A DNA stretch of 19,582 bases from Candidatus Hadarchaeales archaeon (GCA_038851755.1 JAWCKR010000022.1:1-19582), one strand, 5' to 3'. Shown: positions 1,052 to 19,557, counted from the first letter of the stretch. Made by a program: numbers and translations. Notes: generated by a model not told the origin, from the letters alone.

Positions 1052-1743
1052 GGGGAAAGGTGGCCTTCACCGTGGACCTGGAGGAGGATGCGCCCCCCTT
1101 CCTGCGCACCTGGAGGGGGATGGAGGAAGGTCTTCCCGCCCTGCTGGAGGTGCTGGAGGAAGCGGGGGTGAGGGCCACCTTCTTCTCCACCGCCGAGGCC
1201 GCTGGGAGGCTTCCTAAGGGGTTGAGGGGGCACGAGGTAGGCTGTCACGGTTTGCGCCACGAGAGACTGGACCACCTCCCTCCTGGTGAGCGGAGGAGGA
1301 GGGTGAGGGAGGCCACGGAGAGGATGAGGAGACTGGGATGGAGGCCCAGGGGCTTCAGGGCCCCCAACTTCAGGCCCACCACCGAGGTCCTGGAGGAGGT
1401 GAGAAAGCTGGGGTACTCCTACGACTCTTCCCTCGCCGCCTACAAGTTCTACGGGGGTCTCAGGCTTCCAGACCTCCCGGAGTTCCCCAACACCCTTCCC
1501 TCCAGCGCTCTCCGCCTCCCCCTACCCCTCTCCAGGAGGATGGTGGGATGGTGTGTGCGCCACCTTCCCCTCACCGTGCTGGACTACCACCCCTGGGAGG
1601 CCGTGAGGATGGAGGGGGTGAGGTGGGACCTGAGGTTCTCCACGGGAGAAACCTCCCTCCGCAGGTTGAGGGAGCTGCTGAGCTGGCTGAAGGGTGAAGG
1701 AGTAGAGTTCGTGACCCTCGCGGAGATGCTCCCTTCTTTATAG
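1048..1743 (+). CDS. Polysaccharide deacetylase (CE4/NodB-homology family)
   Basis: Motifs TVDLEED, ATFF, HEVGCHG-x2-H, GFRAP, YSYDSS, YHPWE. The TTG start overlaps the integrase TGA (TTGA) and has GAGGAG upstream. Confidence 0.88.
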   Translation: MRGKVAFTVDLEEDAPPFLRTWRGMEEGLPALLEVLEEAGVRATFFSTAEAAGRLPKGLRGHEVGCHGLRHERLDHLPPGERRRRVREATERMRRLGWRPRGFRAPNFRPTTEVLEEVRKLGYSYDSSLAAYKFYGGLRLPDLPEFPNTLPSSALRLPLPLSRRMVGWCVRHLPLTVLDYHPWEAVRMEGVRWDLRFSTGETSLRRLRELLSWLKGEGVEFVTLAEMLPSL

Positions 1744-5783: not shown

Positions 5784-6053
5784 ATGAGGGGGAGAAGGAA
5801 CAGACTGGAGATCATCGGGGAGATCCTGGAGCTGGCTTGCCTGGGGGAGATGACGAAGACGGGAATAGCCTACAGGACCAACCTGGGCTTCGGGCTGGCC
5901 CAGAAGTACATCGACGAGCTGGTGGGGAGGGGACTGCTGGAGATGAAGCCCAACGGTGTGGACGGGGAGAGCCCGCGAAGGGTCTACCACACCACGGAGG
6001 AAGGAATGAAGGTGCTGCGGAAGCTCAGGGAGCTCAGGAAGATGTTCTGCTGA
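5784..6053 (+). CDS. Small archaeal winged-helix regulator (HTH_45/COG3432-like)
   Basis: RRNRLEIIGEIL...TKTGIAYRTNL...KYIDELVGRGLL...YHTTEEG. GGTG SD-like sequence upstream. Confidence 0.85.
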   Translation: MRGRRNRLEIIGEILELACLGEMTKTGIAYRTNLGFGLAQKYIDELVGRGLLEMKPNGVDGESPRRVYHTTEEGMKVLRKLRELRKMFC

Positions 6054-6309
6054 GCTCCTCCTGAGACGCCAGCATCCTCTTTCCGAACTCCGTCAACCTG
6101 TACTCCCTCTCCACGAAACCCGTCTCCTCCAGCAGCTTCAGCACAGCCTTTATGCTCTCCCTGGAGGCCTTCGTGAGCTCCGCCAGCTCCGTGAGGGAGT
6201 GGGAGGTCCCGTCGCCCAGGATCCCGAGGATCTCCTCCGCGAGTTCTTCACCCCATTTTCCTCCCAGCCTCCTCTTGATTTCCTCGAAGGAGTCCTCGAG
6301 CCCAGTCAC
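6034..6309 (-). CDS. Small winged-helix DNA-binding protein
   Basis: EILGILGDG..HSLTELAELT..SRESIKAVLKLLEETGFV...YRLTEFG. GTG start about 24 nt downstream of a minus-strand TTTAAG (6333-6338), so probably leaderless. Confidence 0.72.
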   Translation of the reverse strand: MTGLEDSFEEIKRRLGGKWGEELAEEILGILGDGTSHSLTELAELTKASRESIKAVLKLLEETGFVEREYRLTEFGKRMLASQEELSRTSS

Positions 6310-6342: not shown

Positions 6343-6398
6343 GACTGAACTGAGCGCCAGAAAAGGGCGCCAGAACTATTTTCAGTGGACGCCTTTAT
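6343..6398 (+). promoter_or_regulatory. Repeated operator/promoter block, copy 1
   Basis: 6343-6388 matches 11140-11185 at 45/46 nt. Contains GCGCCAGAA twice, terminal inverted ACTGAA/TTCAGT, then CGC-CTTTAT (TATA-like). Confidence 0.7.
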
Positions 6399-6420
6399 CC
6401 CGGGGCTCTGGTCTTCCCTC

Positions 6421-6530
6421 GGTATGGCCGGGAAAACCGGAGAGGCCCGGGGGACTAAAGGGGAGCCCCCGTTAAAGGGAGGTCCCTTCTGGGACCGACC
6501 GATGATAGCCCCGCAAAGGAGGGAAGAAAC
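6421..6530 (+). ncRNA. Candidate structured cis-regulatory 5' leader (riboswitch-like), copy 1
   Basis: 6443-6512 is identical to 11242-11311. Contains the hairpin GGTCCC-TTCT-GGGACC and long-range GGGG/CCCC pairing, and ends just before the SD GGAGG. Confidence 0.5.
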
Positions 6531-7559
6531 ATGAAAGCGAACAGGAAGCTGGCAGCAGCCTTGTCCCTGGCAATGATAATGGCGACCCTGGGAACGATGG
6601 CGCCGGCAGTCGCAGGGGAAGGAAACAACGGATCCAAAACAATCACTACCAGCGTCACAATACCCCCGGGAGGAGGCAACCCTCCCATCGTGAAGTGCAA
6701 GTGGGAGCAGGACCTCACCACGGACCTGGAGGACGGTGACCCCTCGCACCTCACCCCCGGAGGCCAGTTCCTCCCGCCCTGCGTGTACCAGGGTAAGAAG
6801 ACCATCCAGTACTGGGCGGTGGTGACGGACCCGGAGGGTACGGCCACCGTGGAGGGGGTCTACGTGGACGTCTACCACCCCGACAGGAGCTTCAAGTACG
6901 AGGTGATCCTGACCAAGGTGAACAAGGAGTGCGGCATAGCGGCCTTCCAGGCCGCCTACCAGGCCGGTCTGATCACCTTCGCCGATGGCCACGACTACGA
7001 GGAGGTCCTGGACGAGCTCCAGGAGTGCCTGGCCGACGTCTGGATGGGGGTGGCGGACCTGGACTACCACCAGATGGCCGGAGACTACAGAGTGGAGGCC
7101 TACGCCTTTGACCACAGCAACAACCTCTCTGTCCCGCTGGTCAACACGTTCCTGTACGTGCCCTGTGCCTGCTGCGAGTTCGACTTCACCTCGGTCGACT
7201 ACGGCAGCGTGGACGTGTGCACGTTCAAGTGGATAGGTGGGGACAACGTCTTCGGTACCTACGACAAGCCCACCGTCAGGAACATCGGGAACGTGCCCTG
7301 CCAGATCGTGGTGGAGCAGGACGACATGGGCATGGGCCAGGACTACAACGGCAACTGGAACGTGGAGTTCGGGGCCAGGCTGGGCTGGAACGGTGCGTCC
7401 GTGATCTACGACCCATACGATGAGGTCGTGCTGCCTGACGTGCTGCCCAACTGCAACACCCAGAAGCTCGACTTCGGCATCCACGTGAAGAAGGTCCTGC
7501 CCCCCGAGTCTTACGTCGGGACGATGTGGCTCAGCTGCCAGCCGGCGCAGGCGCCCTAG
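6531..7559 (+). CDS. Secreted Cys-rich beta-sandwich protein; putative fibre/surface subunit
   Basis: Sec signal peptide MKANRKLAAALSLAMIMATLGTMAPAVA, strong SD, strongly GC3-biased codons, 11 Cys, acidic composition, Ig-like VRNIGNVP and a terminal YVGTMWL strand. No membrane anchor. Confidence 0.7.
   Translation: MKANRKLAAALSLAMIMATLGTMAPAVAGEGNNGSKTITTSVTIPPGGGNPPIVKCKWEQDLTTDLEDGDPSHLTPGGQFLPPCVYQGKKTIQYWAVVTDPEGTATVEGVYVDVYHPDRSFKYEVILTKVNKECGIAAFQAAYQAGLITFADGHDYEEVLDELQECLADVWMGVADLDYHQMAGDYRVEAYAFDHSNNLSVPLVNTFLYVPCACCEFDFTSVDYGSVDVCTFKWIGGDNVFGTYDKPTVRNIGNVPCQIVVEQDDMGMGQDYNGNWNVEFGARLGWNGASVIYDPYDEVVLPDVLPNCNTQKLDFGIHVKKVLPPESYVGTMWLSCQPAQAP
6668..7531 (+). repeat. 864-bp direct repeat, copy 1
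   Basis: Aligned by eye to 8982-9845 (offset 2314). Only two differences seen: 7330G/9644A and 7396C/9710T. Confidence 0.95.
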
Positions 7560-7587: not shown

Positions 7588-7639
7588 CCCAATCCGTACA
7601 CCCGCGCGGGCGTATGGGTTGGGGTACCTTTTTATTTTT
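7588..7639 (+). terminator. Long hairpin plus T-tract terminator/attenuator after the subunit gene
   Basis: CCCAATCCGTACACCCG-CG-CGGGCGTATGGGTTGGG stem with G-U pairs, followed by TTTTTATTTTT. Confidence 0.7.
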
Positions 7640-7679
7640 GCGGTCAAGTGGAAAGATCATCGACGAGAGAACAGTCAGG

Positions 7680-8867
7680 ATGGTAGTTTTCGTTTTGTTG
7701 ACATTTTCGCTTTGTTCCGCATTTCTCCCTCCCGTTTGTGCGGCTAAGCTTGCCCTGGTGCCCAACCAGCTGAAGATAGAGAACGCCATGAGAGGTGGAG
7801 AGTACGAAAGGATAGTTACTGTAATCACCGACGAGAACGCCAGAGTCTTCCTCCGGACCGAGGGCGTGGCGGGAGGATGGATCAGCGTGTACGAGTTTGA
7901 GAATCAGACGGCCCCGGTGGAGGAGGTAATCGCCGACGAGAATGGGAGGAGCGTCCTCTTGATCAGGATTAAAATCCCTTCCGACGCCAGCAACGGCACC
8001 TACACGGCATCCCTCATCGCGGAGGTCATCCTCTCCGGGGCTGAGAACTCGGGGGGAACAGGAGTGGGACTCAGGGCCTCGGTGGGAATCACCCTTGAGG
8101 TCACCGGGACCCAGATTCTGAGTGGGGCGGTGGAGTACATCATGGTCGAAGACACCGAGGTGGGCTATCCCCTAAGGATAGGGGTGAGGTTCCGGAACAC
8201 CGGGAACGTGGTCGCAACACCGGAAATCAGGACCACCATAACCAAGGACGGGTCCCCCTTGGACAATTTTGTCCGCGCCGAGGTTGGTGTGGCTCCTGAG
8301 AAGACCGAGACCATCACGGTGGAGTGGGACACTACGGGAAGGGAAACCGGGAGGTACGAGGCGAGCGTGGAGGTCATGCTGGGAGGGGAGGTGCTGGCGG
8401 CCGAGAATCAAGAGTTCGAGCTGTTGCCTTTCGGGACGCTGAGCAGGAGGGGGGAGCTGGTTGAGCTGGAGTATGATGGTGAGCCTTCGGTGGGCAGTAA
8501 GATAAGAATTCTAGCCACCTTCCTGAACACTGGCGAAATCGATACAAGGGCGAGGTTGGTGGGCGAGGTTCATGTTGACGGCGTCTTCACCGACAACCTC
8601 TCGAGCGATGAGAGGTGGGTGGAGCCCGGAGAAAAAGTCACGCTGAGAGCCTACTTGGGGATTGAAAAGACCGGTCGCTACGTGGTGGAGGGCTGGGTGG
8701 AATACGATGGCAAAGTGACCGAAGTAAAGGAGCTTTCCTTCAAAGTAGGGAGCGAGCCTGGCTCTGTCCTCCCCGTGGTGGTGATGGTGTTCGCAGCATT
8801 GCTGGTGGGGGGTGGACTGGTTGGGGGTAAGACCCTCTTCAGAAAGTTTTCACCGAAGGCTAAGTAG
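7680..8867 (+). CDS. Membrane-anchored multi-Ig-domain protein (DUF916/WxL-interacting or PapD-chaperone-like N-domain plus CARDB-like domains)
   Basis: Signal peptide from ATG 7680. IKIPSDASNGTYTASL..., GTGVGLRASVGITLEVTG, two FxNTG(N/E) Ig motifs, C-terminal TM plus basic tail. The family assignment is a resemblance only. Confidence 0.6.
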   Translation: MVVFVLLTFSLCSAFLPPVCAAKLALVPNQLKIENAMRGGEYERIVTVITDENARVFLRTEGVAGGWISVYEFENQTAPVEEVIADENGRSVLLIRIKIPSDASNGTYTASLIAEVILSGAENSGGTGVGLRASVGITLEVTGTQILSGAVEYIMVEDTEVGYPLRIGVRFRNTGNVVATPEIRTTITKDGSPLDNFVRAEVGVAPEKTETITVEWDTTGRETGRYEASVEVMLGGEVLAAENQEFELLPFGTLSRRGELVELEYDGEPSVGSKIRILATFLNTGEIDTRARLVGEVHVDGVFTDNLSSDERWVEPGEKVTLRAYLGIEKTGRYVVEGWVEYDGKVTEVKELSFKVGSEPGSVLPVVVMVFAALLVGGGLVGGKTLFRKFSPKAK

Positions 8868-11145
8868 CTCCAGGGAACAAGTCTTGGTGCTCTTGGTGTT
8901 GTGGGTCTCTACGACCTTGGTGATGGCATCAGCAGTGGCTGCTGAAGAAATCACAGTGGTTACTTCGGTCTTCATAGCAAAGGGAGGAGGCAACCCTCCC
9001 ATCGTGAAGTGCAAGTGGGAGCAGGACCTCACCACGGACCTGGAGGACGGTGACCCCTCGCACCTCACCCCCGGAGGCCAGTTCCTCCCGCCCTGCGTGT
9101 ACCAGGGTAAGAAGACCATCCAGTACTGGGCGGTGGTGACGGACCCGGAGGGTACGGCCACCGTGGAGGGGGTCTACGTGGACGTCTACCACCCCGACAG
9201 GAGCTTCAAGTACGAGGTGATCCTGACCAAGGTGAACAAGGAGTGCGGCATAGCGGCCTTCCAGGCCGCCTACCAGGCCGGTCTGATCACCTTCGCCGAT
9301 GGCCACGACTACGAGGAGGTCCTGGACGAGCTCCAGGAGTGCCTGGCCGACGTCTGGATGGGGGTGGCGGACCTGGACTACCACCAGATGGCCGGAGACT
9401 ACAGAGTGGAGGCCTACGCCTTTGACCACAGCAACAACCTCTCTGTCCCGCTGGTCAACACGTTCCTGTACGTGCCCTGTGCCTGCTGCGAGTTCGACTT
9501 CACCTCGGTCGACTACGGCAGCGTGGACGTGTGCACGTTCAAGTGGATAGGTGGGGACAACGTCTTCGGTACCTACGACAAGCCCACCGTCAGGAACATC
9601 GGGAACGTGCCCTGCCAGATCGTGGTGGAGCAGGACGACATGGACATGGGCCAGGACTACAACGGCAACTGGAACGTGGAGTTCGGGGCCAGGCTGGGCT
9701 GGAACGGTGTGTCCGTGATCTACGACCCATACGATGAGGTCGTGCTGCCTGACGTGCTGCCCAACTGCAACACCCAGAAGCTCGACTTCGGCATCCACGT
9801 GAAGAAGGTCCTGCCCCCCGAGTCTTACGTCGGGACGATGTGGCTTGGGTGCAGATCTGACTTTGCTGTGAACTCCAGTGGGACCATTTGGATACCCCAC
9901 GAGTGGGAGTGTTTAGAGGTGTGGACGGGGAGTGCCTCAACGGGCGTTTACGGTTTACCCGACATTCCCGGTGCGCCGGTAGGATGGTCCCTGTTGGAGA
10001 TGTGGACTGAGGGCGCCTCTTCCCCGGCTCGTTGGGGGCTCCTGGAACTCTCAGCGGGCCTTCCGGGGGGCTCCGGCTCCAGCGCATCGAGGGAATGGCG
10101 TCTGGTAGATTCATGTGGAGGCGGAGCCCAAGCCACGACTGAGGTCGTTTCTACAGGAGATTCCAAGTCTCCTGGGGTCCAGGGTCTGGGCCTCACGAAC
10201 TGGATGAGCGAACCCACGACCACCCTTACCGTGGAGACCCTTCCCATAAGAGCGGGGGTCTACGTGGACGACCTTTACTGGGGGAGGGCTCCACAGACGA
10301 GGGAGGTGGAGGCAGGCGTTCACACGGTTTTCTTTGGGGATTGTCCTGACTACCTGACTCCCGCACCTCAAACCTCGATTATACCGCAGGGTGAGAGTAG
10401 AACCGTTACTGGAATCTACACGGAGATACCGGAGGAGTTGATTGAAAGCGAATCGTCCCCAGTTCATCTCCCCTCCATAAGAGCTGGCGAGAGCGTGGCC
10501 GTAGAGCTGGAGGGCACGGCTATCACTGAGATAACGATGGGGTTGAGGAGGGGGGTAGAGAACGTGTGGTTGATGGTTCAGCAGCTGACCGACCTGCCCG
10601 CCGGTTGGGTGGTAGGGGCCCCAGGGCTCCCCTATCGGTATCTGAACATAGTGGTTGAGAATCTAATCGATCCATACCTTGACACCGCGCTGATAGTTTT
10701 CAGGGTGGAGAAGTCTTGGGTGGAGGAAGCTGACATAGACCCAGCCACTGTGGTCCTTTGGAGGTGGAATCCTTCCAGCAAGGAGTGGGAATCTTTGTAT
10801 ACCGTGATGATAGGAGAGGACGGCACCCGCTACACCTATCGTGCGGAGTCTTCGGATCTGTCCCTGTTTTCCGTATCGGGGTTACCCGTGAGTCTTACTT
10901 CGCTGACACTGCCGGAGCCTCCGGGGATAATGGTGGTCGCATTGCTGGCAGGGACCTTCGTAATGGCGTTGGCAGTAGTGTCGATTACGGGAAGCTTGGT
11001 CAAGAGGGGGATCATGGCGCACCGTATTCGTGGTGCAAAAGCTTGGAGGGTGAGGTGGTGGGTTCTCGCCTGGATGGCGTACTTCGTGGAGAGAATACGG
11101 ACCGTGGGCGCTTCAATCCTCTCTGGAGACATCTCTCCCGACTGA
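8812..11145 (+). CDS. Membrane-anchored surface protein: copy of the 6531 subunit domain + Trp-repeat linker + PEGA-like + PGF-pre-PGF domain + C-terminal TM
   Basis: Signal peptide ending ASAVAA; 288 aa near-identical to the 6531 protein. TLTVETLP..AGVYVDD..WG.AP....AGVHTV is PEGA-like. YRYLNI...FRVEKSWV...IDPATVVLWRW...WESL...YTYRAESSDLSLFSVSG is PGF-pre-PGF. Start uncertain (8812, 8884 or 8887). Confidence 0.78.
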   Translation: MDWLGVRPSSESFHRRLSSSREQVLVLLVLWVSTTLVMASAVAAEEITVVTSVFIAKGGGNPPIVKCKWEQDLTTDLEDGDPSHLTPGGQFLPPCVYQGKKTIQYWAVVTDPEGTATVEGVYVDVYHPDRSFKYEVILTKVNKECGIAAFQAAYQAGLITFADGHDYEEVLDELQECLADVWMGVADLDYHQMAGDYRVEAYAFDHSNNLSVPLVNTFLYVPCACCEFDFTSVDYGSVDVCTFKWIGGDNVFGTYDKPTVRNIGNVPCQIVVEQDDMDMGQDYNGNWNVEFGARLGWNGVSVIYDPYDEVVLPDVLPNCNTQKLDFGIHVKKVLPPESYVGTMWLGCRSDFAVNSSGTIWIPHEWECLEVWTGSASTGVYGLPDIPGAPVGWSLLEMWTEGASSPARWGLLELSAGLPGGSGSSASREWRLVDSCGGGAQATTEVVSTGDSKSPGVQGLGLTNWMSEPTTTLTVETLPIRAGVYVDDLYWGRAPQTREVEAGVHTVFFGDCPDYLTPAPQTSIIPQGESRTVTGIYTEIPEELIESESSPVHLPSIRAGESVAVELEGTAITEITMGLRRGVENVWLMVQQLTDLPAGWVVGAPGLPYRYLNIVVENLIDPYLDTALIVFRVEKSWVEEADIDPATVVLWRWNPSSKEWESLYTVMIGEDGTRYTYRAESSDLSLFSVSGLPVSLTSLTLPEPPGIMVVALLAGTFVMALAVVSITGSLVKRGIMAHRIRGAKAWRVRWWVLAWMAYFVERIRTVGASILSGDISPD
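8982..9845 (+). repeat. 864-bp direct repeat, copy 2
   Basis: Near-identical to 6668-7531, with two non-synonymous differences (G>D, A>V). Confidence 0.95.
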
Positions 11146-11195
11146 ACTGAGCGCCAGAAAAAGGCGCCAGAACTATTTTCAGTGGTCGCTTTTAC
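11140..11195 (+). promoter_or_regulatory. Repeated operator/promoter block, copy 2
   Basis: 45/46 identity to 6343-6388, then CGC-TTTTAC. Overlaps the stop codon of the upstream gene. Confidence 0.7.
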
Positions 11196-11218
11196 CCCAG
11201 CTTTCAGGCGGGCTTTGA

Positions 11219-11333
11219 GGCCATGGCGGAGGAAACCGAGAAGGCCCGGGGGACTAAAGGGGAGCCCCCGTTAAAGGGAGGTCCCTTCTGGGACCGACCG
11301 ATGATAGCCCCATCAAAAAGGAGGTGAAAGGAG
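11219..11333 (+). ncRNA. Candidate structured cis-regulatory 5' leader (riboswitch-like), copy 2
   Basis: 70 nt identical to copy 1, followed by the SD GGAGGTGA and the ATG at 11334. Confidence 0.5.
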
Positions 11334-11858
11334 ATGAGAACAGCGATGGCCGTGTTTGGAGCACTCATGTTGGCTCTCGCTCTGACCGGTGTGGCTTTCG
11401 CCCACTGGACCGATTCCCTGTACATCAGCGGCACGGTCAACACGGGAACCTTTGGAGCTGAGCTCAGCGTGGGGACGGGTCATGATAGTGAGCCACCCTG
11501 CAAGGATGTCAGCTCTATTTCGGGCACCCTCTCGGAGGACGGAAAGACTATAACAGTGACGGTCACCAACGCCTATCCCTGTATCGACTACTACCTGCCC
11601 ATAGATGTGCACTGCACGGGTACCGTTCCCCTGATCATAGAGAGCATAGTGATAGACAGGGGAACCCTGCCGGAGAACACCACGCTGGAGATTATCCCGG
11701 CGATGATAGATTTCCCCTTAGAAGTGGGTACGCAGTTACACTACTGTGATGCGGCTTACGGGGAGTTGCACGTGCACCTGGACGAGGACGCAGAGGAGAA
11801 CACAAACTACACCTTCAGCGTAACCATCAACGTGGTGCAGTGGAACTACTACGACTGA
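11334..11858 (+). CDS. SipW-cognate signal peptide protein; TasA/CalY-like putative major fibre subunit
   Basis: h-region then GVAFA|HWTDSLYISGTVNTG, the SipW-class pattern A-x-(F/W)-(T/S)-D...G. Also NAYP, GTVP and a terminal VVQWN strand. Confidence 0.8.
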   Translation: MRTAMAVFGALMLALALTGVAFAHWTDSLYISGTVNTGTFGAELSVGTGHDSEPPCKDVSSISGTLSEDGKTITVTVTNAYPCIDYYLPIDVHCTGTVPLIIESIVIDRGTLPENTTLEIIPAMIDFPLEVGTQLHYCDAAYGELHVHLDEDAEENTNYTFSVTINVVQWNYYD

Positions 11859-11890: not shown

Positions 11891-13366
11891 TTGAGGAACA
11901 CAAAGCTAGCCGTACTGCCGATACTGCTGCTGGTAGGGACGCTCCTGACCGGTGTGGCCTTCGCCCACTGGTCGGAGTCCCTCCTGCTCACGGGGAGCGT
12001 GGCCACGGGATTGTTGGACTGGCAGTTCACTGGCGTGGGCCACTTGGACCCAGGCCCACCCGACAGCGTGAGGGACTACCACTGCCGGGACAACTTCGAG
12101 GGGCCTCCTCCCTACTACTGGCAGGGGGACAAGGATGTGGGCTACACCACAGCGGTGATAACGGAGGATCCCCACGTCATCGAGGTGACCTTGAACAATG
12201 TGTACCCCAGCTACTTCAACTCCATAAGTGTGTACGCAAAGAACACGGGGAGCATTCCCTTGATCATAGAGAGGGCCATCATCGATGGGAATGTGGTGAT
12301 GGACTTCGACGAGAAAGTCAGGCTGGACCTCGATGGGGACGGGAAGGATGACTTGGAGATATGGTGGAAGGCCAACATCTTTGGCGTTCAGCTGGAGCCA
12401 GGGGAAGATGGACCTCAGACGAGCTTCTGGGTTCACGTTCTGCAGGATGCGCCTAGGGGTGAGTCCCTGGAGTTCACCATCGAGCTGGTGGCGGTGCAGT
12501 GGAATTACTCCGAGCATCCCCCCGCACCGAAGCCCACCATAGGACTTTCGCCACCAATTCTGACCTTCAGCGCCGTACTCGGTGGACCCAATCCACTGCC
12601 GCAGAACTTTACCGTTTCCAACCTGGGTCCTGCCGGGACCACGCTTAACTGGACGGTCACGGATAATGCAGCCTGGCTTTCGCTCTCCCCGACGAGCGGT
12701 TCCCTGCCAGGAGGGAGTTCCGAGCCTATGGCTGCGAACGTGAGCATCGCTGGGCTGGGAGTAGGGACATACTATGCCACGGTCACGGTTTCGGATCCCA
12801 ACGCCACGAACGATCCGCAGACTGCAACCGTGGTGCTGGTGATCTCTGCACCCAGTGTCATAGCGGATAACTTGGACGTCAATGGCGGGCTCGACACGTC
12901 GGGAGGATACTGGTGTGGAAATAATTGGTGTGCTAACCCACACACCCTGACGCCCTCAGATTTGGAAAGTCTGGAGAACAGCAACAACATTCGGTATCAA
13001 AGCTATGGCGTGTGGAGCGAGGACTATTCCAACAACGAGTACCTCGATTTAGAGTTCGAAAACATCCCCTGCGGGGCCACGGTGAACAGCGCTGTGCTCA
13101 AGTTCGAGTGGCAGAGAACCACGAAGGTGGATAATGCCAGGCTGAGGATATGGAACGGCTCCAGCTGGAGTGCGCACTACTATCTTCCCATGCCAACTCC
13201 CAACAATGACACCACCGTGACGATAGACCTGAAAGGACTCTACGGCATAGACACTTGCTACGAGGTCAACAACTTGAAAATCAGATTCCAGGCTTCAAGC
13301 AGCGACTGGTCCAATGCTTATACCAAGCACGATTGGGTCGAGGTTCAAGTGACCTATACACTGTGA
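11891..13366 (+). CDS. TasA-like domain + BACON/Ig-like domain + C-terminal beta domain; putative minor or tip adhesin subunit
   Basis: TTG 11891 after a GGGGAG SD. GVAFA|HWSESLLLTGSVATG, NVYP, NTGSIP, AVQWN; DLDGDGKDD Ca-loop; WTVTDNAAWLSLSPTSGSL is BACON-like. Confidence 0.75.
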   Translation: MRNTKLAVLPILLLVGTLLTGVAFAHWSESLLLTGSVATGLLDWQFTGVGHLDPGPPDSVRDYHCRDNFEGPPPYYWQGDKDVGYTTAVITEDPHVIEVTLNNVYPSYFNSISVYAKNTGSIPLIIERAIIDGNVVMDFDEKVRLDLDGDGKDDLEIWWKANIFGVQLEPGEDGPQTSFWVHVLQDAPRGESLEFTIELVAVQWNYSEHPPAPKPTIGLSPPILTFSAVLGGPNPLPQNFTVSNLGPAGTTLNWTVTDNAAWLSLSPTSGSLPGGSSEPMAANVSIAGLGVGTYYATVTVSDPNATNDPQTATVVLVISAPSVIADNLDVNGGLDTSGGYWCGNNWCANPHTLTPSDLESLENSNNIRYQSYGVWSEDYSNNEYLDLEFENIPCGATVNSAVLKFEWQRTTKVDNARLRIWNGSSWSAHYYLPMPTPNNDTTVTIDLKGLYGIDTCYEVNNLKIRFQASSSDWSNAYTKHDWVEVQVTYTL

Positions 13367-13425: not shown

Positions 13426-15333
13426 ATGAAAGAAGAAGGAAGGGCGGCGGGAAGGAAGGCGGCTTTCGTCCTAGTCCTTACCCTCTTCAACTACTTCTTC
13501 CTGAACCTCTTTCGTCCTGGGGGATGGATGGCCTATCTCCTGCCCTCCCTTTGCTGGGGTTTCCTTGCCCTGGTTGCCCTGAAGCTTTTTGGCTTGAGCA
13601 GGATAAGGTCCTGGTTTAACCCCAAGGTATCCCTAACTGCCGCGTGTGTTTCAATCCTTTATGTGCTGGTCCTACTGAACTTGGGCCTCTTCACGGGATT
13701 CGGGAAGAGTCCCTACTCCTTCGCTCCTTTGCCTCTCCTCACCAATGCGTTACTTGCCTTTTCCACTTTGATGGGCATGGAGTTCTCCCGGGCATACTTG
13801 GTAAAGACGGTGGGCAGGAACAGACCCTTCCTGGTCTTCGGGCTTGTCACCCTCCTGTACGCCCTGTTGGGTATTTCCACCGCCAGACTCTTTCAGCTTG
13901 GAGATCCCCTAGCCGCTACCAAGTTCTTTGGGGTCGGTTTTCTGCCCCTCTTAGCGGAAAGCCTTCTTGTCACCCATCTGGCGCTCTTGGGCGGTCCGGT
14001 GGCCTCCCTGGCCTACCGCGCCCCCCTCACCATCTTCTGGTGGTTCTCCCCCATCCTCCCCCGTCTCTCGTGGGGGATGGAGGCCTTTCTAGGGGTGATG
14101 GTACCGACGGCCGGGTTCTTCTTGATCAACCTCTACACTTCCCCTTTCACCCTGCGGAGGCAGGGTTTAACCCGGGAACCAGGAGGATTCGGCGGGTTCA
14201 GGAAATCCCAAGCCAGAGGTCTGGTGTTAACCTCGGTTCTCTGTGTCCTGATGGTGTGGGTTTCCACGGGGCTCCTGGGCCTCAGGGTGACGACCGTCTT
14301 GAGCGGGAGTATGAGTCCCAGCTTGGAGGTGGGGGATGTGGTGGTGGTGAGGGAGGTTTCCCCCTCATCCGTGGGGCCAGGTGACGTGATTCAGTTCGGG
14401 CGAGAAGGGGAGGCTGTAATCCACAGGGTGGTGGAGGTAAGGCAGGAGGGAGGAAACTGGTTCTTCATCACTAAGGGAGATGCCAATTCTTCCCCAGATC
14501 CCACCCCCGTCTCTTCCTCTCAGCTGATGGGAAAGATGGTCCTGCAGATTCCCAAGGTTGGGTGGATAGTCATCTTCGTGAAGGAGGCTACCTTGAGCCT
14601 GTGGTCGTTCTTGCAGGAGCACTTGGCTGTCTTCCTTTCTTTGCCCATCCTGACGATTTCTTTTCTCCTAGCCCGCAAATACAGGAGGGGGCGGGTGGGA
14701 TGGAGCAGAAGGGTCCCCCCCGAGAGATGGAGTGCTCCCTTTTCCCTCCTCATGCTCTTCCTAGCGGTGGGAGGAATAGCCTACGCCCACTGGAGCGAGC
14801 CTCTCTACGTGTCGGGCACGGTGGAGACGGGAAGCTGGGGGTCAGAGATAGAATGTTACGGGGTCTGGAGCTTCCCGTGCTGGCAGGTGAACTCCTGGCT
14901 TTCGGAGGACAACCGCACCCTCAACCTACGCTACTGTTACACCTATCCCTGCGATACGGTCTTGGTCGTTCTCAAGATTCACAACATGAAAACCGTACCT
15001 GTATTCTTCGAGGGCTTCCGGTACCAGTTCTCCCCTTCCTCCATGGAGGACGGTTTCCACATTTACGAGTGGTTCTTCGGTCCATACGGTGATGGTTGCC
15101 AGCAGGGAGACTGCTGCTGGTGGAAGGACCATCTCTGCGGGGACGGATGCGGAGGTCTTGATGAGAAGACTTGCTGCTGGATGAGTTCTTGCTGTCGCAG
15201 ACCGCCCATCCAGCTCGATCCCTGCCAGAGCCTGATAGCCGTGGTGGAGCTGAAAAGTTGCACTTGGTCCTGCGGTTTCACCCTCTCCATAAGCATAGAG
15301 GATGTATGCTGGGCCTGCCTGGGAAGAGCGTGA
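13426..15333 (+). CDS. sipW: Polytopic membrane domain + SipW/Sec11-type signal peptidase I (S26B) fused to a C-terminal Cys-rich TasA-like substrate
   Basis: VLSGSMSP..VGD, VIHRV (Ser/His dyad), TKGDAN. Downstream and in frame: GGIAYA|HWSEPLYVSGTVETG, then LSEDNRTL, YTYPC, KTVP, IQLDPCQ, which parallel the 11334 protein. Confidence 0.85.
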   Translation: MKEEGRAAGRKAAFVLVLTLFNYFFLNLFRPGGWMAYLLPSLCWGFLALVALKLFGLSRIRSWFNPKVSLTAACVSILYVLVLLNLGLFTGFGKSPYSFAPLPLLTNALLAFSTLMGMEFSRAYLVKTVGRNRPFLVFGLVTLLYALLGISTARLFQLGDPLAATKFFGVGFLPLLAESLLVTHLALLGGPVASLAYRAPLTIFWWFSPILPRLSWGMEAFLGVMVPTAGFFLINLYTSPFTLRRQGLTREPGGFGGFRKSQARGLVLTSVLCVLMVWVSTGLLGLRVTTVLSGSMSPSLEVGDVVVVREVSPSSVGPGDVIQFGREGEAVIHRVVEVRQEGGNWFFITKGDANSSPDPTPVSSSQLMGKMVLQIPKVGWIVIFVKEATLSLWSFLQEHLAVFLSLPILTISFLLARKYRRGRVGWSRRVPPERWSAPFSLLMLFLAVGGIAYAHWSEPLYVSGTVETGSWGSEIECYGVWSFPCWQVNSWLSEDNRTLNLRYCYTYPCDTVLVVLKIHNMKTVPVFFEGFRYQFSPSSMEDGFHIYEWFFGPYGDGCQQGDCCWWKDHLCGDGCGGLDEKTCCWMSSCCRRPPIQLDPCQSLIAVVELKSCTWSCGFTLSISIEDVCWACLGRA

Positions 15334-15373: not shown

Positions 15374-16432
15374 ATGGTGGGGCTAAAGCGTTTCTTGAAG
15401 AGGTTGGGAAAGGGCTCCTTCCTAATCATCTCTTTTTTCCTCTTGCTTGACGCCCTCTTGCTTCTGGGGTACTCCCATTCTAGGCCAGAGACGGAGAACC
15501 GAACCCAGGTCCTTCTCTCTTACCGGCACCGCGGGGAATACGATTACGTGGCGCATTTGAAGCCCAACGAACTCTACGACAACAGGCTGGAACTCTCAGC
15601 CGGGGAGGGAACGGTTTACCTTCCCCTGCTGGAGAACCTCTCCCTCACCTTCCGCTATACCTTCTTCTCCACGGAAAAGGGCACTCTTTCTTCCTCCTAT
15701 CGGGTGGAGGTGGTGCTCTCCACCCAGGCTTGGAGCAAGAGCTATCCCTGGCTGGAAAACTCAGTCCAGGCCCCGGGAAACACCTTAGAGTTTTCCACGG
15801 CTTTGGTTCTCGACCCTTCTTGGGTGGAAGAGAGGATGGAGGCGATAAGCTGGGAAACGGGTACTTCCACCCGCAGCTACGACGTGCAGGTGAGGACATC
15901 GGTCCACACGGTTGCCCAGACGGGGAAGGGCACGGTGGACGAATCCTTCTCACCTCAGCTCACCCTTCACTTCGTGAGGGACCCAGCCAAGGGGGAGTAC
16001 CTCACGGTGGAGGGACTGGAGGAAAGGAAGGAGGGAGCGATTATTCATCCAGAGACTCTTCACCGTGGAGAGATAGGAACCCTCAGGAGGATTTCCTATG
16101 TACTGCTGGCGTTCGCACTGTTGTGCGTTTTTCTCACGGGCTGGGCCTACTTCTCGGCTGAGAAACCAAGGAAGGTGGAGGAGCTGGTGGAGCCCCTCCG
16201 GGAGCTGGTGGTGGAACTCTCGGAGGAGCCGAAGGTCCCGGCAGGGGGGACCACGGTGAGGGTGGGAAGGATGGAGGACCTGGGCAAGATTGCCGAAGGG
16301 CTGATGAAGCCGGTCCTGCACGTGAGGCTCCCCTCACACGATGGTGAAGAGCACCTTTTCTTGGTCCTTGACGGCTCCGTGAGGTACGAGCACCGGGTGA
16401 AGGCGCTGGGGGGCATAGTGGTAAAGAGGTAA
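15374..16432 (+). CDS. DUF5305-like membrane protein
   Basis: N-terminal TM, Y..HRGEYDYVA.LKPNELY, extracellular beta domain, second TM, and a cytoplasmic V..MEDL.KIAE.L.KPVLH...DGSVRY tail. This family is typically found next to S26 peptidases. Confidence 0.65.
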   Translation: MVGLKRFLKRLGKGSFLIISFFLLLDALLLLGYSHSRPETENRTQVLLSYRHRGEYDYVAHLKPNELYDNRLELSAGEGTVYLPLLENLSLTFRYTFFSTEKGTLSSSYRVEVVLSTQAWSKSYPWLENSVQAPGNTLEFSTALVLDPSWVEERMEAISWETGTSTRSYDVQVRTSVHTVAQTGKGTVDESFSPQLTLHFVRDPAKGEYLTVEGLEERKEGAIIHPETLHRGEIGTLRRISYVLLAFALLCVFLTGWAYFSAEKPRKVEELVEPLRELVVELSEEPKVPAGGTTVRVGRMEDLGKIAEGLMKPVLHVRLPSHDGEEHLFLVLDGSVRYEHRVKALGGIVVKR

Positions 16433-16489
16433 CACCTTTTCACTCCTGGCGTCTTTTGTTTCCCAAGAGAACCGTGGTTTACCCATCCC

Positions 16490-16495
16490 TTATAA
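16490..16495 (+). promoter_or_regulatory. TATA box (TTATAA) for a probably leaderless protease gene
   Basis: Lies about 24 nt upstream of ATG 16519, and there is no SD before that ATG. Confidence 0.55.
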
Positions 16496-16518
16496 CACCC
16501 GCCATCAAAAATTATTCG

Positions 16519-17334
16519 ATGAAACTCCTGGCGGGTGTGCTGGCCTTTCTCCTTTTGCTGGCCTTCCCCCTCCCCGTCCTGGCGGCCTCTGGGGAGGAGG
16601 ACCCCCTCCCGCAGGAGTGGGTGGGGAAGCACAAGATCGTGGAACACTTCGGGAAGCTGAGCAGGATGGTCCTCGTCCGCTATGTGGGTGAGAGACTCTC
16701 CGAGCCCTCGGAGGTGGTGGAGATAGGGGACCCGGACAACGATGGGGCCGTGGATGCTTACGCGCTTCTGGGTGTGTGGTGGGATCTCTCCAAGTATCCC
16801 GGCGGGGTTCCCTACACGGTGAACCCCACTGTGGCGGCCAGGTCCTACAGGTTGAAGGAGGGTGAAGTGGTGGGGGCCGTCCAGAGGGCCTTCGAGAACT
16901 GGGACGATGCGGTGGAGAGGGAGCTGTACAACAACAGGGTCACGGTGAACTGGAAGGCCAGCGCCAGCCCCAGGCGTCCGGACTACCGGAACGTGGTTAC
17001 GTGGGGAAGGCTGCAGAAGGGGGTGGTGGCCGTCACCTACCTCTGGTACCTCACGGATACGGGAGAACTCGTGGACGCGGATATAGTGTTTAACTCATAC
17101 TACAGATGGGGGATAGACCCCGACGGCGAGGGCACGGGGTACCAGCTGAGCGGGGCTTTCGACCTCCAGAACATAGCCACCCATGAGACCGGTCACTTCA
17201 CGGGCCTCGACGACCTCTATGACGAGCCCTACTGGGCCATGACCATGTACGGCTATGCGGACTTCGGAGAGACGTGCAAGGTTTCCTTGGAGCCTGGGGA
17301 TGTGGCTGGGGTCAGGGCGATTTACGGGTCCTAG
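16519..17334 (+). CDS. Secreted matrixin-like (metzincin, M10-like) zinc metalloprotease
   Basis: Signal peptide MKLLAGVLAFLLLLAFPLPVLA; AFENWD, DADIVFN, FDLQNIATHETGHFTGLDD, Met-turn TMY, LEPGDVAGVRAIYG. Confidence 0.9.
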   Translation: MKLLAGVLAFLLLLAFPLPVLAASGEEDPLPQEWVGKHKIVEHFGKLSRMVLVRYVGERLSEPSEVVEIGDPDNDGAVDAYALLGVWWDLSKYPGGVPYTVNPTVAARSYRLKEGEVVGAVQRAFENWDDAVERELYNNRVTVNWKASASPRRPDYRNVVTWGRLQKGVVAVTYLWYLTDTGELVDADIVFNSYYRWGIDPDGEGTGYQLSGAFDLQNIATHETGHFTGLDDLYDEPYWAMTMYGYADFGETCKVSLEPGDVAGVRAIYGS

Positions 17335-17494: not shown

Positions 17495-18385
17495 TTGGCC
17501 GGTCTGGGAACCTGGGGGAAACCTTCTGAGAACAGGGAGGCTTGGAAAGAGGAGCTTCTGCTGAGGCTGGAGGGAAGAGCCCCTCCTCCTCCGCCCCCCG
17601 AGGAGGTGCCGACGCCGCCACCACCACCGGAGGAAAAAAGGAGGCTCCAGCGGCTCAGGCAGGTTCCCTCCAGGGCCTGGGCGAAGTTCTTCGGCTTCAA
17701 TGTCTCCCTGTGGATGAGGGTGAACAGGCACAGGCTGATCTTCGACCTCGTGCTTTCCTTCCTCATCCTCCTCCTCGTCCTCTTCTCACGCCTTCCCTCT
17801 TGGTCTCTCTGGCCCCTGGTGGGCTTTCTGGTCTTCCTCATGATCGTTTTCTCCCTTCCCTCCTCTTTCATGCTTGGTTTGCGTTACTCCATCCTGGCCG
17901 TGTTCGTCGTGTTGGTCTTCATAGTCATCGTTCTGGGGGTCTGGTTCCTCGTCTCACCGGCGGTCGTGATGATGGCCATGCCGCCGCCACCCGAACCTCC
18001 CACGGCCGCCGGTGAGTACGGGGTGAAGGTGGGGAAGGTCACCCTCTGGGACTATGACATCGAGGGACCGGTGGAGTACCAGGGGGTGCCCTGTACCCGC
18101 ATCACGGCAAGGAAGGCCAAGATCTCCGGGCAGGAGATGACGGGGGGAGGACTGGGATTGGGAGCCTCCTCCATGGAGGTGGAGAACTTCCAGGCTTACG
18201 TCACCTACATGAGGGGGACAGGCAGCGCCTTCGGCATGCGCGTTCGGTCGGGCTGGAAGGGGGGTAGCTCTCCTCCCTGGACGGTGGGGCTCCTGGGGAA
18301 TCCCACCACCTTCTCGGATGTCACCATGCACATGGTCTCGATGGAGGGAAGGAGGATCACGCTCAAGGGGGTGGAGATGGGTTGA
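17495..18385 (+). CDS. Membrane protein with Pro-rich linkers and an extracellular beta domain (DUF6230/DUF6114-associated-like)
   Basis: Poly-Pro tract, about 3 TM segments, PPPPEPP linker, and a C-terminal ...VENFQAYVTYMRG...FSDVTMHMVSMEGRRITLKGVEMG. TTG start uncertain; family call tentative. Confidence 0.55.
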   Translation: MAGLGTWGKPSENREAWKEELLLRLEGRAPPPPPPEEVPTPPPPPEEKRRLQRLRQVPSRAWAKFFGFNVSLWMRVNRHRLIFDLVLSFLILLLVLFSRLPSWSLWPLVGFLVFLMIVFSLPSSFMLGLRYSILAVFVVLVFIVIVLGVWFLVSPAVVMMAMPPPPEPPTAAGEYGVKVGKVTLWDYDIEGPVEYQGVPCTRITARKAKISGQEMTGGGLGLGASSMEVENFQAYVTYMRGTGSAFGMRVRSGWKGGSSPPWTVGLLGNPTTFSDVTMHMVSMEGRRITLKGVEMG

Positions 18386-19557
18386 GCCTCCGCAGACTCC
18401 TCCCGGTGGTCTTACTCCTTTTCTCCCTCCTGCTGGCGGTCCCCCTCGTGCTGAAGGGGAGGGTGTACGTGATGCAGGGGGGATCCATGGAGCCCTCCAT
18501 CTCCAACGGCGACCTAGTCCTCCTGAAGCCGGCCGGGGAGATACAGGAGGGCGACGTGGTGGTGTACAGGAACATCTGCCACCGGGTGCTCTCCGTGGGA
18601 GAGGAGACCCTCACTACCAAAGGGGACGCCAACCCTGACCCCGATCCCTGGGTGGTGCCCAGGAATGCGGTGGTGGGGAAGGTGGACAGAGTGATTCCCG
18701 GACTGGGTTCCCTCTTCCTCTTTGCCCGTTCTCCCCTTGGTATAGCCCTCTTCGCGGGTCTCTTCTTCCTCCTAGCTTTCACCTGGGCCATGCCAGAGGT
18801 CAAGGTGGGCAGGCCGCGTCTCACCCTCAGGGAGGGGCTCATGGCCCTCCCCTCGGTGGGGCTGGCCGTAGCCTGGTATTTCTCCAGCGGCCTGTTAAGG
18901 CTGCTCTTCTTCACCCTTCTCTGCTTTTCCGTCCCGCTCTTCCTGAACTCCCTTTCCTCCCTCAAACGCCTCAGGGAGAGGTGGCCCTTCTGGGCCATCG
19001 TGCTCGCCTTCCTGGGTGGGGCCTGGATCCTGACTTCCTGCAGGGTGGTGCCTGGCCTGCTCTACCTCCACCATCCGGACCTCTTCTTCACCCCCATCCT
19101 GGCCCTTCTCACCATGGGTCTGGCGGGGGCCATGCTCTGGCTCCGCTCGGACCGACTTACTTCCATCATAGGAGTGGTGCTCATCGTCGTGGGCATCATC
19201 ACCTTCTTCTCCATGCCGATAGGGGAGGTTTTCGCCTCTCTCTTCACCATCGTGGCAGGGGCGCACGCCCTAGCCTGGCAGCCTCCATCCACCCCCGGGA
19301 TGTCTTCCCTGGTGGAGCTCCCCCAGCGCGAGGAGGAGAGGGAGGAGGAAAGGGAGGTCCCGCCCCTGGAAGAGGAGAGTGCTCCCCCCGCTCTGGAGGA
19401 GAGGAGAGGAGGGAGGGGGAGTGGGCTGGAGGAGGTGGTGGGCAGGATTCATTCCCTTTTGCGCTCGTCGTTGGAAAGGAGGGGAGAAGAACCCGCAAGC
19501 ACGGAGAGCGGTCAAGCCCCGATCCACGACGGAGAAAACCCAGAGGTGAAGGAATGA
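18382..19557 (+). CDS. Second S26B signal peptidase I fused to a DUF6114-like membrane domain
   Basis: GGSMEPSISNGD, ICHRV, TKGDANPDPDPW. C-half RERWPFWAIVLAFLGGAWIL...IVAGAHALAWQP resembles DUF6114. TTGA overlap with the previous gene. Confidence 0.8.
   Translation: MSLRRLLPVVLLLFSLLLAVPLVLKGRVYVMQGGSMEPSISNGDLVLLKPAGEIQEGDVVVYRNICHRVLSVGEETLTTKGDANPDPDPWVVPRNAVVGKVDRVIPGLGSLFLFARSPLGIALFAGLFFLLAFTWAMPEVKVGRPRLTLREGLMALPSVGLAVAWYFSSGLLRLLFFTLLCFSVPLFLNSLSSLKRLRERWPFWAIVLAFLGGAWILTSCRVVPGLLYLHHPDLFFTPILALLTMGLAGAMLWLRSDRLTSIIGVVLIVVGIITFFSMPIGEVFASLFTIVAGAHALAWQPPSTPGMSSLVELPQREEEREEEREVPPLEEESAPPALEERRGGRGSGLEEVVGRIHSLLRSSLERRGEEPASTESGQAPIHDGENPEVKE

Follow-up and report, generated by a model that had tools for sequence, protein, structure and literature searches.

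A predicted pseudoknotted RNA leader of archaeal matrix-filament subunit genes, putatively of the riboswitch type

Two unrelated genes of a Candidatus Hadarchaeales archaeon are preceded by the same non-coding block, which is very probably a structured RNA and, as a genetic element, probably cis-regulatory. The best overall explanation for this element is a riboswitch-type cis-regulatory leader, to which we assign a probability of about 0.38; that it is a riboswitch for a small ligand is a putative and tentative assignment. The element combines what is generally expected of riboswitches, a conserved structured RNA in the (inferred) 5' UTR with covariation and invariant junction bases. The riboswitch reading was preferred because aptamers usually show this pattern: unpaired bases that do not vary, an optional hairpin of variable form, a pseudoknot, a coherent regulon, and a copy number of one or two per genome.

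The window, i.e., the whole stretch of DNA that was analysed (19,582 nt, GCA_038851755.1 JAWCKR010000022.1:1-19582), comprises both copies of the element found in this genome (1.25 Mb, 26 contigs, 93% complete). It has the following features:

6034–6309, minus strand: divergent gene for a putative 91-aa winged-helix regulator (weak matches to wHTH families)
6343–6401, plus strand: promoter-like block, copy 1, with ACTGAACT-type repeats, the inverted repeat GCGCC..GGCGC, and the TATA-like CCTTTATC at 6391–6398 (93% identity to copy 2)
6421–6447, plus strand: variable 5' leader with the small hairpin P0, CCGG 6428–6431 / CCGG 6437–6440 (MFE folds)
6448–6471, plus strand: hairpin P1 of copy 1, CGGGGG 6448–6453 / CCCCCG 6466–6471 (covariation, RNAalifold)
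Within P1 of copy 1, plus strand: bulged A6454; P1b, C6455-U6456 / A6464-G6465; apical loop 6457–6463
6460–6463, plus strand: GGGG of the P1 loop, predicted 5' strand of the pseudoknot, copy 1
6472–6505, plus strand: P2 domain of copy 1, with P2a, UUA 6472–6474 / UGA 6503–6505, and the internal loop AA 6475–6476 / GA 6501–6502
6477–6500, plus strand: P2 hairpin of copy 1, including tandem G.A/A.G, 6479–6480 / 6497–6498
6506–6512, plus strand: linker UAG 6506–6508, then CCCC 6509–6512, predicted 3' strand of the pseudoknot
6513–6530, plus strand: spacer with SD GGAGGG (6518–6523), as read from the sequence
6531–7559, plus strand: gene 1, open reading frame for a 342-aa secreted protein (..GGG.PP.VKCKWEQDL..)
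11140–11198, plus strand: promoter-like block, copy 2 (93% identity to copy 1)
11219–11246, plus strand: variable leader with P0, copy 2 (GGCC..CGG..CCG..GGCC; MFE fold)
11247–11311, plus strand: core motif, copy 2, the same sequence as copy 1 (offset 4799), with a score of 83.3 bits for covariance model R1
Within the core of copy 2, plus strand: P1 11247–11252 / 11265–11270; loop G-run 11259–11262; P2a 11271–11273 / 11302–11304; P2 11276–11299; UAG 11305–11307; CCCC 11308–11311
11320–11327, plus strand: SD GGAGGUGA of the abpX-like gene, as read from the sequence
11334–11858, plus strand: gene 2, 174-aa AbpX/TasA-like matrix-filament subunit (signal peptide, then ..AFAHWTDSLYISGTVNTG..; PDB match)

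Alignment of the two sites confirmed that 6443–6512 and 11242–11311 are identical over 70 nt, as a sequence-only reading of this DNA had noticed. The identical block ends 6–8 nt before the SD of two unrelated genes with start codons ATG 6531 and ATG 11334. It lies within a wider repeat (6424–6512 vs. 11223–11311) of 93% identity, and further upstream the two promoter-like blocks of 6343–6401 and 11140–11198 (family D6) form a second common block, also with 93% identity. The approximately 25–40 nt between promoter-like block and 70-nt block have diverged between the copies, while the flanks are 93–100% identical, in agreement with the same reading. A small CC/GG hairpin had further been seen in both copies, and MFE folds recovered it as P0: despite the differing sequence, CCGG/CCGG of copy 1 is replaced by CGG/CCG in copy 2.

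By comparison of sequences, the core of about 65 nt is an H-type pseudoknot with a hairpin embedded in the third loop. The G+C-rich P1, with the bulged A and a two-pair CU/AG extension, carries a G-run in its loop and is directly followed by P2a and P2; after the UAG linker follows a C-run that is complementary to the G-run of the P1 loop (GGG:CCC). Across phyla, about 15 unpaired nucleotides, comprising the A bulge, AA, AA/GA, and UAG, hardly vary, and the C-box-like word GAUGAU is conserved together with the internal loop AA/GA. The length of P2 ranges from 11 to approximately 50 nt. A reduced form consists of P1, the loop, GUUAAAUAG, and CCC, and since it lacks P2, this hairpin is dispensable. 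The drawing proposed by the sequence-only reading was thus retained in part: its GGGG...CCCC pairing is the pseudoknot that is now supported, and its GGUCCC/GGGACC hairpin is P2, but in place of its CCC..GGG hairpin, covariation gives P1 with CGGGGG/CCCCCG. A hairpin just 5' of P1 is predicted for many but not all homologs (mean z of -0.69, z<-1 in 21 of 63), and we did not retain P0 as a universal 5' hairpin. Many leaders from Hadarchaeota and Bathyarchaeia harbor a second, similar hairpin-GUUAAA module upstream.

Collection of homologs and a test for covariation had been proposed from the sequence alone, and both bore out a conserved structure. Two alignments were used: A3 comprises 29 diverse copies aligned by MAFFT, and A4 comprises 74 copies fitted to the covariance model, a procedure that favours the structure of the model. 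P1 was paired in 100% of the cells of the 74 sequences, and five of its six pairs showed changes on both sides. C:G was replaced by A:U or U:A, and G:C by C:G, A:U, or U:A; G.U pairs occurred in addition. For P2, both-sided changes were seen in all six pairs (74 instances). None of 500 shuffled alignments reached the observed scores, and when the 3' partners were slid by 1–3 columns, pairing decreased from 90–92% to 40–67%. RNAalifold applied to the MAFFT alignment, which was not fitted to the model, returned the same P1 and P2 and independently added P1b and P2a. P2a showed no double changes; it has U.G in 60 and C-G in 12 of the 74 sequences.

The pseudoknot GGG:CCC is kept in 68–72 of the 74 sequences. 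In nine genomes both strands are altered or extended with complementarity retained (GGGGA:UCCCC, GGGGAU:GUCCCC, GGGA:UCCC, UGGGGU:AUCCCA, GGC:GCC, GGC:GUC, and GGG:CUC). Among these pairings, GGC:GCC represents a flip from G:C to C:G, and GGGGA:UCCCC and GGGGAU:GUCCCC are coordinated extensions. Since the three core pairs are invariant in at least 62 of the 74 sequences, the covariation support for the pseudoknot comes from these nine divergent sequences, several of which are interrelated.

A coding function of the block was also considered. Open frames of 37 and 35 codons start at ATG 6424 and ATG 11223 in the two copies, span the block, and end with a TGA where the gene starts, as a small upstream open reading frame or leader peptide would do. 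In the 74 homologs the anchor distances modulo 3 were distributed as 31/27/15, stops were present in all frames in 16 of the 74, and the translated peptides were unrelated. This reading was rejected due to the lack of a conserved frame and of related peptides, and its probability is practically nil.

TATA-like boxes are located 50–56 nt upstream of P1, namely CCTTTATC in the window (6391–6398), CCGCTTAT in other Hadarchaeota, and CCTTTTAAGC in the Thermoprotei-type loci. In other Hadarchaeota, related ACTGAACTnAG repeats precede the motif together with the CCGCTTAT boxes. From the positions of these boxes and the usual archaeal spacing, the TSS would be expected about 25 nt past the box and about 25–30 nt before P1. 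In a public run labelled as RNA, assembled contigs covered 6460–6810 and 6818–7458 without any difference to the window; such contigs show neither starts nor strand, and they may include DNA carry-over. The contig that begins at 6460 speaks, though weakly, against a transcription start past the block. Promoter-like boxes and RNA-library contig together suggest that the element is located in the 5' UTR. Contigs from RNA libraries exist for both motif-led genes, and their depth cannot be ranked. Run X4 left 7608–11225 uncovered, and in X8 and X9 contig depth was uneven between the genes, values that are no measure of expression level or silence.

The divergent 91-aa protein had matches to several wHTH families, of which only the one to wHTH-PRTase_assc (27.6 bits) exceeded its curated cut-off (27). 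Its gene also adjoins the promoter block in two other genomes (G002 and G003), and we infer that the protein regulates the locus at the DNA level.

These data also bear on the question of whether the element itself acts at the DNA level, either as promoter or operator, with GTTAAA as the TATA box and P1 as a palindromic operator, or as a recently duplicated promoter. GTTAAA(T)A does look like the TATA box of an archaeon, P1 has the form of an inverted repeat, and the copies of the window are identical. However, the G.U and U.G pairs in P1, P2, and P2a work only in RNA of the plus strand, and between GTTAAA and the conserved GAUGAUAGCCC there are 0 to approximately 50 nt, depending on the copy. 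Archaeal promoters have a fixed spacing between TATA box and start. The boxes 50–56 nt upstream of P1 are separate and better TATA-like boxes, and the RNA-library contig begins, as a weak argument, upstream of the start that such a promoter would give. Spacing and G.U pairs ruled out GTTAAA as a promoter, and duplication alone is excluded by conservation across phyla, which also disposes of the recent promoter duplication considered in the sequence-only reading. G.U pairs, strand specificity, and a P2 of variable length all suggest that the block acts as RNA rather than DNA; an element acting at the DNA level is most improbable.

The genes that follow the motif form a coherent group. The 174-aa protein matched AbpX (PDB 9sj2_C) with an E value of 1.7e-4, and the alignment starts from W25, the mature N-terminus. 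Its gene is followed by genes for an AbpX-like 508-aa protein, a SipW-like signal peptidase I (13426–15333, TIGR02228), and a DUF5305 protein (15374–16432, PF17231). According to the body of a preprint, abpX loci have a make-up as in this AbpX/signal peptidase/DUF5305 locus; the same body of text, supplements aside, does not contain the words "UTR" or "riboswitch" (10.64898/2026.01.04.697558). We assign the product of 11334–11858 to the AbpX/TasA superfamily on the basis of the match to a solved member and of a locus with SipW-type signal peptidase I and DUF5305. The 342-aa protein had no match in Pfam, NCBIfam, or PDB, and a search of a protein atlas gave only unnamed clusters; homologs of it also follow the motif in four further loci (L074, L083, L084, and L217).

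Most motif-led genes encode AbpX/TasA-like matrix-filament subunits. Among 65 distinct starts of downstream open reading frames, 30 have an N-terminus of the AbpX/TasA type by pattern and about 10 more by eye. The others include five of the 342-aa protein family, two type IV pilin-like proteins, and a few other secreted proteins, and about eight entries among them are open reading frames called in the wrong frame. Within the window's order, AbpX-like genes were found in 8 of 65 genomes, which are exactly the eight with the full motif. In G003, a congener, promoter block and end of the DUF5305 gene are fused, and the whole locus including both leaders is missing from this genome as a result. 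The RNA core is near-identical between lineages, and AbpX-like proteins from outside the genus, within the window's order, are 36–50% identical.

When 61 related genomes were searched at the DNA level, the core (6448–6511) was detected with 76–88% identity in another family of the same order. With covariance model R1, 12 of the 65 genomes of the order, which are at the same time all 65 genomes of the class, had a match at E≤0.01. Ten of these are clear (eight with the full motif and two with the reduced form) and two are doubtful. A pattern scan of metagenome contigs revealed 50 loci. A looser pattern applied to genome contigs gave at least 20 true copies, full or decayed, among the 80 titled matches listed; all 20 were archaeal, and the other 60 were chance matches to the 5' half that lacked the 3' half. 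The titles of the true copies among the matches listed name Hadesarchaea/Hadarchaeota, Bathyarchaeota/Bathyarchaeia, Thermoprotei/Thermoproteota, Nitrososphaerota, Ca. Culexmicrobium, and, in one case, Archaeoglobales. Among the untitled loci listed, 7 of 40 were true copies.

For wider samples of classes and of the phylum the broader models R2 and R3 were applied; all genome sets are samples, and many of the genomes are incomplete. A Bathyarchaeia-type class had the motif in 6 of 151 sampled genomes, and the class of G066 had it in 6 of 120 (five clear, as L227 with 27.4 bits is another multi-copy element). The count was 10 of 62 genomes for the class of G068, and for the phylum-wide sample it was 8 of 151 genomes, among which L274 (23.5 bits) is again the other multi-copy element. 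In the class of G067 it occurs in G067 alone among 96 genomes. This Archaeoglobales record is a contig of only 2.7 kb that may be misbinned, the motif being present in none of the 95 other genomes. G410 of the same class has a different repeat, and seven weak matches in G410 and L034, L227, and L274 were discarded as belonging to a different multi-copy element.

Occurrence of the motif is thus sporadic, with one or two copies per genome that are always in 5' UTRs. The homologous copies are on the strand of the gene, 8–35 nt upstream of start codons. The spacer before the start codon is variable, and it is A-rich in many of the homologs displayed. Recurrence of the core in other archaea excludes chance. 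Part of the conservation could nevertheless reflect recent spread, as related sequences do not count as independent and gene transfer may carry the loci between genomes.

The element is placed between a conserved promoter and the strong SD of the first, major-subunit gene of loci for extracellular filaments or matrix, and in the mechanism that we favour it would act in cis on the expression of this first subunit gene. A ligand or bound factor may stabilise the pseudoknotted fold. The stabilised fold would keep the C-tracts (CCC of the tail and the 3' strand of P1) off the G-rich SD and thereby turn translation on, and on opening of the fold the C-tracts could pair with the SD and dampen initiation. 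In homologs the SD is located 8–30 nt beyond the motif. Blocking of the CCC tail increased the mean predicted accessibility of the SD from 0.62 to 0.84 in 43 leaders (ViennaRNA, 37 °C, no energy for the pseudoknot). The probability of the SD being unpaired was below 0.5 in only 14 of the 43 leaders, and the SD is predicted to be mostly open even without the pseudoknot. For some of the leaders, the folds predict base pairs between the CCC tail and the SD. Because just these 14 leaders are predicted as closed, we regard pairing of the C-tracts with the SD as a weak candidate for an expression platform. No clear conserved expression platform and no conserved alternative structure was found over the 43 leaders, and no terminator-like feature was seen by eye.

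The absence of a conserved alternative structure would also suit a constitutive, non-sensing leader, in which the stable tertiary fold close to the 5' end protects the mRNAs of structural proteins with very high expression from 5'-to-3' decay or, for efficient initiation, presents an A-rich spacer and the strong SD. Placement before major structural subunit genes with strong extended SDs, many of them with an A-rich spacer, is consistent with such a function, as are the six G-C pairs of P1, which is stable alone, and the RNA-library contigs for both motif-led genes. About 15 invariant unpaired nucleotides and a pseudoknot conserved across phyla are, however, unnecessary for simple stabiliser hairpins. 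Such constraint is typical of specific recognition, although a knot-like, nuclease-resistant fold would show it too. We consider a leader of this type unlikely, though a serious rival to the riboswitch reading.

The same invariant unpaired nucleotides and the compact fold could serve for docking of an RNA-binding protein that controls the translation (by repression or activation) or the mRNA decay of the subunit genes, possibly an L7Ae-like binder of K-turns or G.A pairs or another factor. Pseudoknot operators of autoregulated mRNAs from bacteria and phages bind proteins. An SD that is not sequestered in most predicted folds, the conserved tandem G.A/A.G of the Hadarchaeal-type P2, and the second hairpin-GUUAAA module in many leaders, as repeated binding sites would give, are in line with an operator. 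In the 74 sequences, 45–46 cells were non-standard at the two tandem pairs. On the other hand, the sequence of the G.A-bearing P2 is not conserved: many copies from Bathyarchaeia and Thermoprotei have a plain Watson-Crick helix there, without G.A, and the reduced form lacks P2 altogether. No canonical K-turn (3-nt bulge, then G.A, A.G) could be drawn; the tandem G.A of the Hadarchaeal P2 has no 3-nt bulge and is missing in other lineages. A K-turn with GUUA/UAGC as the NC stem was discarded, since the frequent change of U to C in GUYAAA is uncompensated in that register; RNAalifold pairs UYA with UGA instead (P2a), where U.G becomes C-G. Furthermore, no gene for an RNA-binding protein is conspicuous in the locus, and conservation across phyla would require an equally conserved partner. 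A protein-binding operator is a rather doubtful alternative, still to be taken seriously beside the riboswitch reading.

The sequence-only reading had rightly seen a conserved, structured, riboswitch-like 5' leader before matrix/filament genes in an archaeon, but the kinship to the ydaO or c-di-GMP-I riboswitches that it suggested was not upheld. A permissive scan of the whole window against Rfam 15 returned 12 weak matches, none of them on the element (E≤10), and a scan of the 121 nt of 6415–6535 with laxer filters returned four matches at chance level (E about 1 or higher). ydaO (RF00379), c-di-GMP-I (RF01051), and crcB (RF01734) gave no match at E≤10 in either scan. Size and architecture, two hairpins and one pseudoknot in about 65 nt, also differ from those of the ydaO and c-di-GMP-I classes. 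A variant of either class that senses a cyclic dinucleotide would be consistent with the matrix and pilus gene context, which parallels that of bacterial c-di-GMP riboswitches. The search for the corresponding cyclases, which the earlier reading had named as a further check, found neither DAC (PF02457) nor GGDEF (PF00990) domains in the own genome (93% complete), while 11 of 14 and 8 of 14 control genomes, respectively, were positive. A cyclic dinucleotide is an unlikely ligand because no DAC or GGDEF domain was found, and a variant ydaO or c-di-GMP-I riboswitch is improbable in the extreme.

A compact pseudoknotted fold with invariant junction bases may also belong to a self-cleaving ribozyme or a processing site that releases a stable monocistronic subunit mRNA. 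P1 plus linker is reminiscent of the 5' part of pistol ribozymes, and one RNA-library contig ends inside the P1 loop, at 6460, an end that could equally be an effect of assembly or coverage. No Rfam ribozyme family matched at E≤10, and the likeness to pistol ribozymes was dropped on this result. No conserved helices follow the C-run, and a copy number of one or two per genome, with 5' UTRs as the only location, also argues against cleavage or processing, which we regard as very improbable.

The reduced form (L035) scored 14.6 bits with SAM_alpha (RF00521) over P1 and GUUAAA (E 0.22; gathering score 36); the window copies gave no match to this family. In a library of openly accessible papers, supplements aside, a full-text search with the motif strings found no relevant paper, and word searches on archaeal structured RNAs found nothing on this motif. 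Judged by Rfam 15 and the literature searches, the element appears to be an undescribed RNA family of a known general kind.

To our knowledge, few cis-regulatory RNAs have been described in archaea, and the known ones are shared with bacteria and not archaea-specific. Descriptions of the control of extracellular matrix filaments in archaea are scarce. As a speculation that goes beyond the riboswitch reading and that we hold to be somewhat unlikely in full, the element may represent the first archaea-specific riboswitch class for biofilm-matrix and pilus subunits, a counterpart of the bacterial c-di-GMP riboswitches. It would sense a signal not yet linked to RNA in archaea, e.g., a second messenger that has escaped recognition or an ion like Ca2+, which AbpX-type filaments require, and would have spread with the filament loci across Hadarchaeota and several classes of Thermoproteota. 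Ligand sensing by the element, if it occurs, would uncover a signal that governs biofilm formation in archaea. Should the element instead bind a protein or prevent decay, several uncultured archaeal lineages would have in common a new element of post-transcriptional control. For further work the motif comes with an alignment that shows strong covariation, with a defined regulon, and with an RNA small enough for probing and structural studies, and it is a practical marker for major-subunit genes of filament/matrix loci in metagenomes.

Among known systems, minimal pseudoknot riboswitches are closest in architecture. SAM-II/SAM-V and preQ1-I are minimal classes of this kind, and in preQ1-II, an H-type pseudoknot, loop 3 contains an embedded hairpin. 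They share with the archaeal element a P1, a loop strand that pairs with the 3' tail, an A-rich strand (here GUUAAA) leaving P1, an optional embedded hairpin, the small size, and the location in the 5' UTR. It differs from the preQ1 and SAM classes in its conserved loop and junction sequences and in an SD outside the pseudoknot, and also in its archaeal hosts and in downstream genes that are not related to SAM or preQ1 metabolism. The bacterial c-di-GMP-I and -II riboswitches are alike by function only, as structured leaders before pilus, adhesin, and matrix genes. They match the element neither in sequence nor in structure, no GGDEF domain was found in the own genome, and we know of no c-di-GMP signalling in archaea. 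The ydaO riboswitch shares some short sequence words with the element. ydaO has a large pseudo-twofold architecture with many helices, whereas the archaeal element is much smaller, with its single pseudoknot and two hairpins, in a genome in which no DAC was found. With L7Ae-bound K-turns and tandem G.A motifs the element has in common the tandem G.A/A.G of the Hadarchaeal P2, the AA/GA loop, and GAUGAU, but it has no canonical 3-nt bulge and the G.A-bearing part of P2 is absent in many homologs. Structured 5' UTRs stabilise the mRNAs of S-layer proteins, pilins, and exoproteins, as known for the aprE leader of B. subtilis and leaders of S-layer genes. These resemble the archaeal element as long structured leaders with a strong SD before the gene of a very abundant secreted structural protein. 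They are lineage-specific simple stem-loops, while the archaeal element is, by prediction, a pseudoknot with invariant unpaired bases that is found across phyla.

The promoter block (6343-6401 and 11140-11198), which precedes each of the two leader RNAs, contains the inverted repeats ACTGAA..TTCAGT and GCGCC..GGCGC. ACTGAACTnAG repeats were found again upstream of the leader motif in other Hadarchaeota. The repeats of the promoter block are likely sites for the regulator encoded by a divergent winged-helix gene (6034-6309). The same-genus genome G003 has retained both this gene and the promoter block.

G003, contig C17, about 1430-1570, minus strand: congener counterpart of the promoter-block region (locus L008)

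There, the DUF5305 gene directly abuts the promoter block with its 3' end, and a matrixin-like gene follows. This genome lacks the stretch of about 10 kb that carries the abpX locus together with the two leaders. In the window, two further genes lie downstream of the abpX locus.

16456-17334: matrixin-like metalloprotease
18382-19557: fusion of a second SipW-like signal peptidase with DUF6114

Repeat comparison within the window revealed 300 nt of 100% identity between two coding regions.

6531-7559: 342-aa gene, with the repeat copy 6668-6967
8812-11145: 777-aa PGF-pre-PGF gene, with the repeat copy 8982-9281

Since the N-terminal domain is identical in both proteins, the sequences suggest a recent duplication or gene conversion. 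A coding motif of the AbpX-type N-terminus, ..AHW(T/S)(D/E)..GTV.TG, is present in three copies.

11382-11447: copy 1
11945-12010: copy 2
14767-14832: copy 3, within the 635-aa ORF 13426-15333

Because the 635-aa ORF combines this third copy with a signal peptidase I domain, it may represent a fusion, or two genes that were read as one.

In genome G030 the intact leader motif is accompanied, at a distance of about 1.6 kb, by a decayed second copy (L041/L150, contig C35, 1741-1804). This copy has lost P2 as well as the tail, and its P1 is disrupted (CCCUAG).

Another element occurs in multiple copies, seven of them in genome G410 (L228-L234) and others in G045 (L034), G238 (L227) and G524 (L274). 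It measures about 90 nt and is bounded by a long terminal stem (CUUGCUUCUGAGG .. CCUUAGAAGCAAG), and the interior is similar to the 3' two-thirds of the leader motif, comprising GGGAGCC, the UAAAAGGGC hairpin and ACCGAUGA.AGCC. No Rfam match was found for this element, which could be related to the leader or could be the RNA of a mobile element.

Many leaders from Hadarchaeota and Bathyarchaeia harbor a second module 5' of the core (L009-L014, L098, L102, L109, L152, L170, L176, L208, L218 and L222), and in Bathyarchaeia further conserved hairpins are located upstream. The module consists of a hairpin (CGUGCY..RGCACG), followed by GUUAAA and then by a strand that could pair with the loop of the hairpin (e.g., CUGG..CCAG), an arrangement that resembles another pseudoknot placed in tandem with the first.
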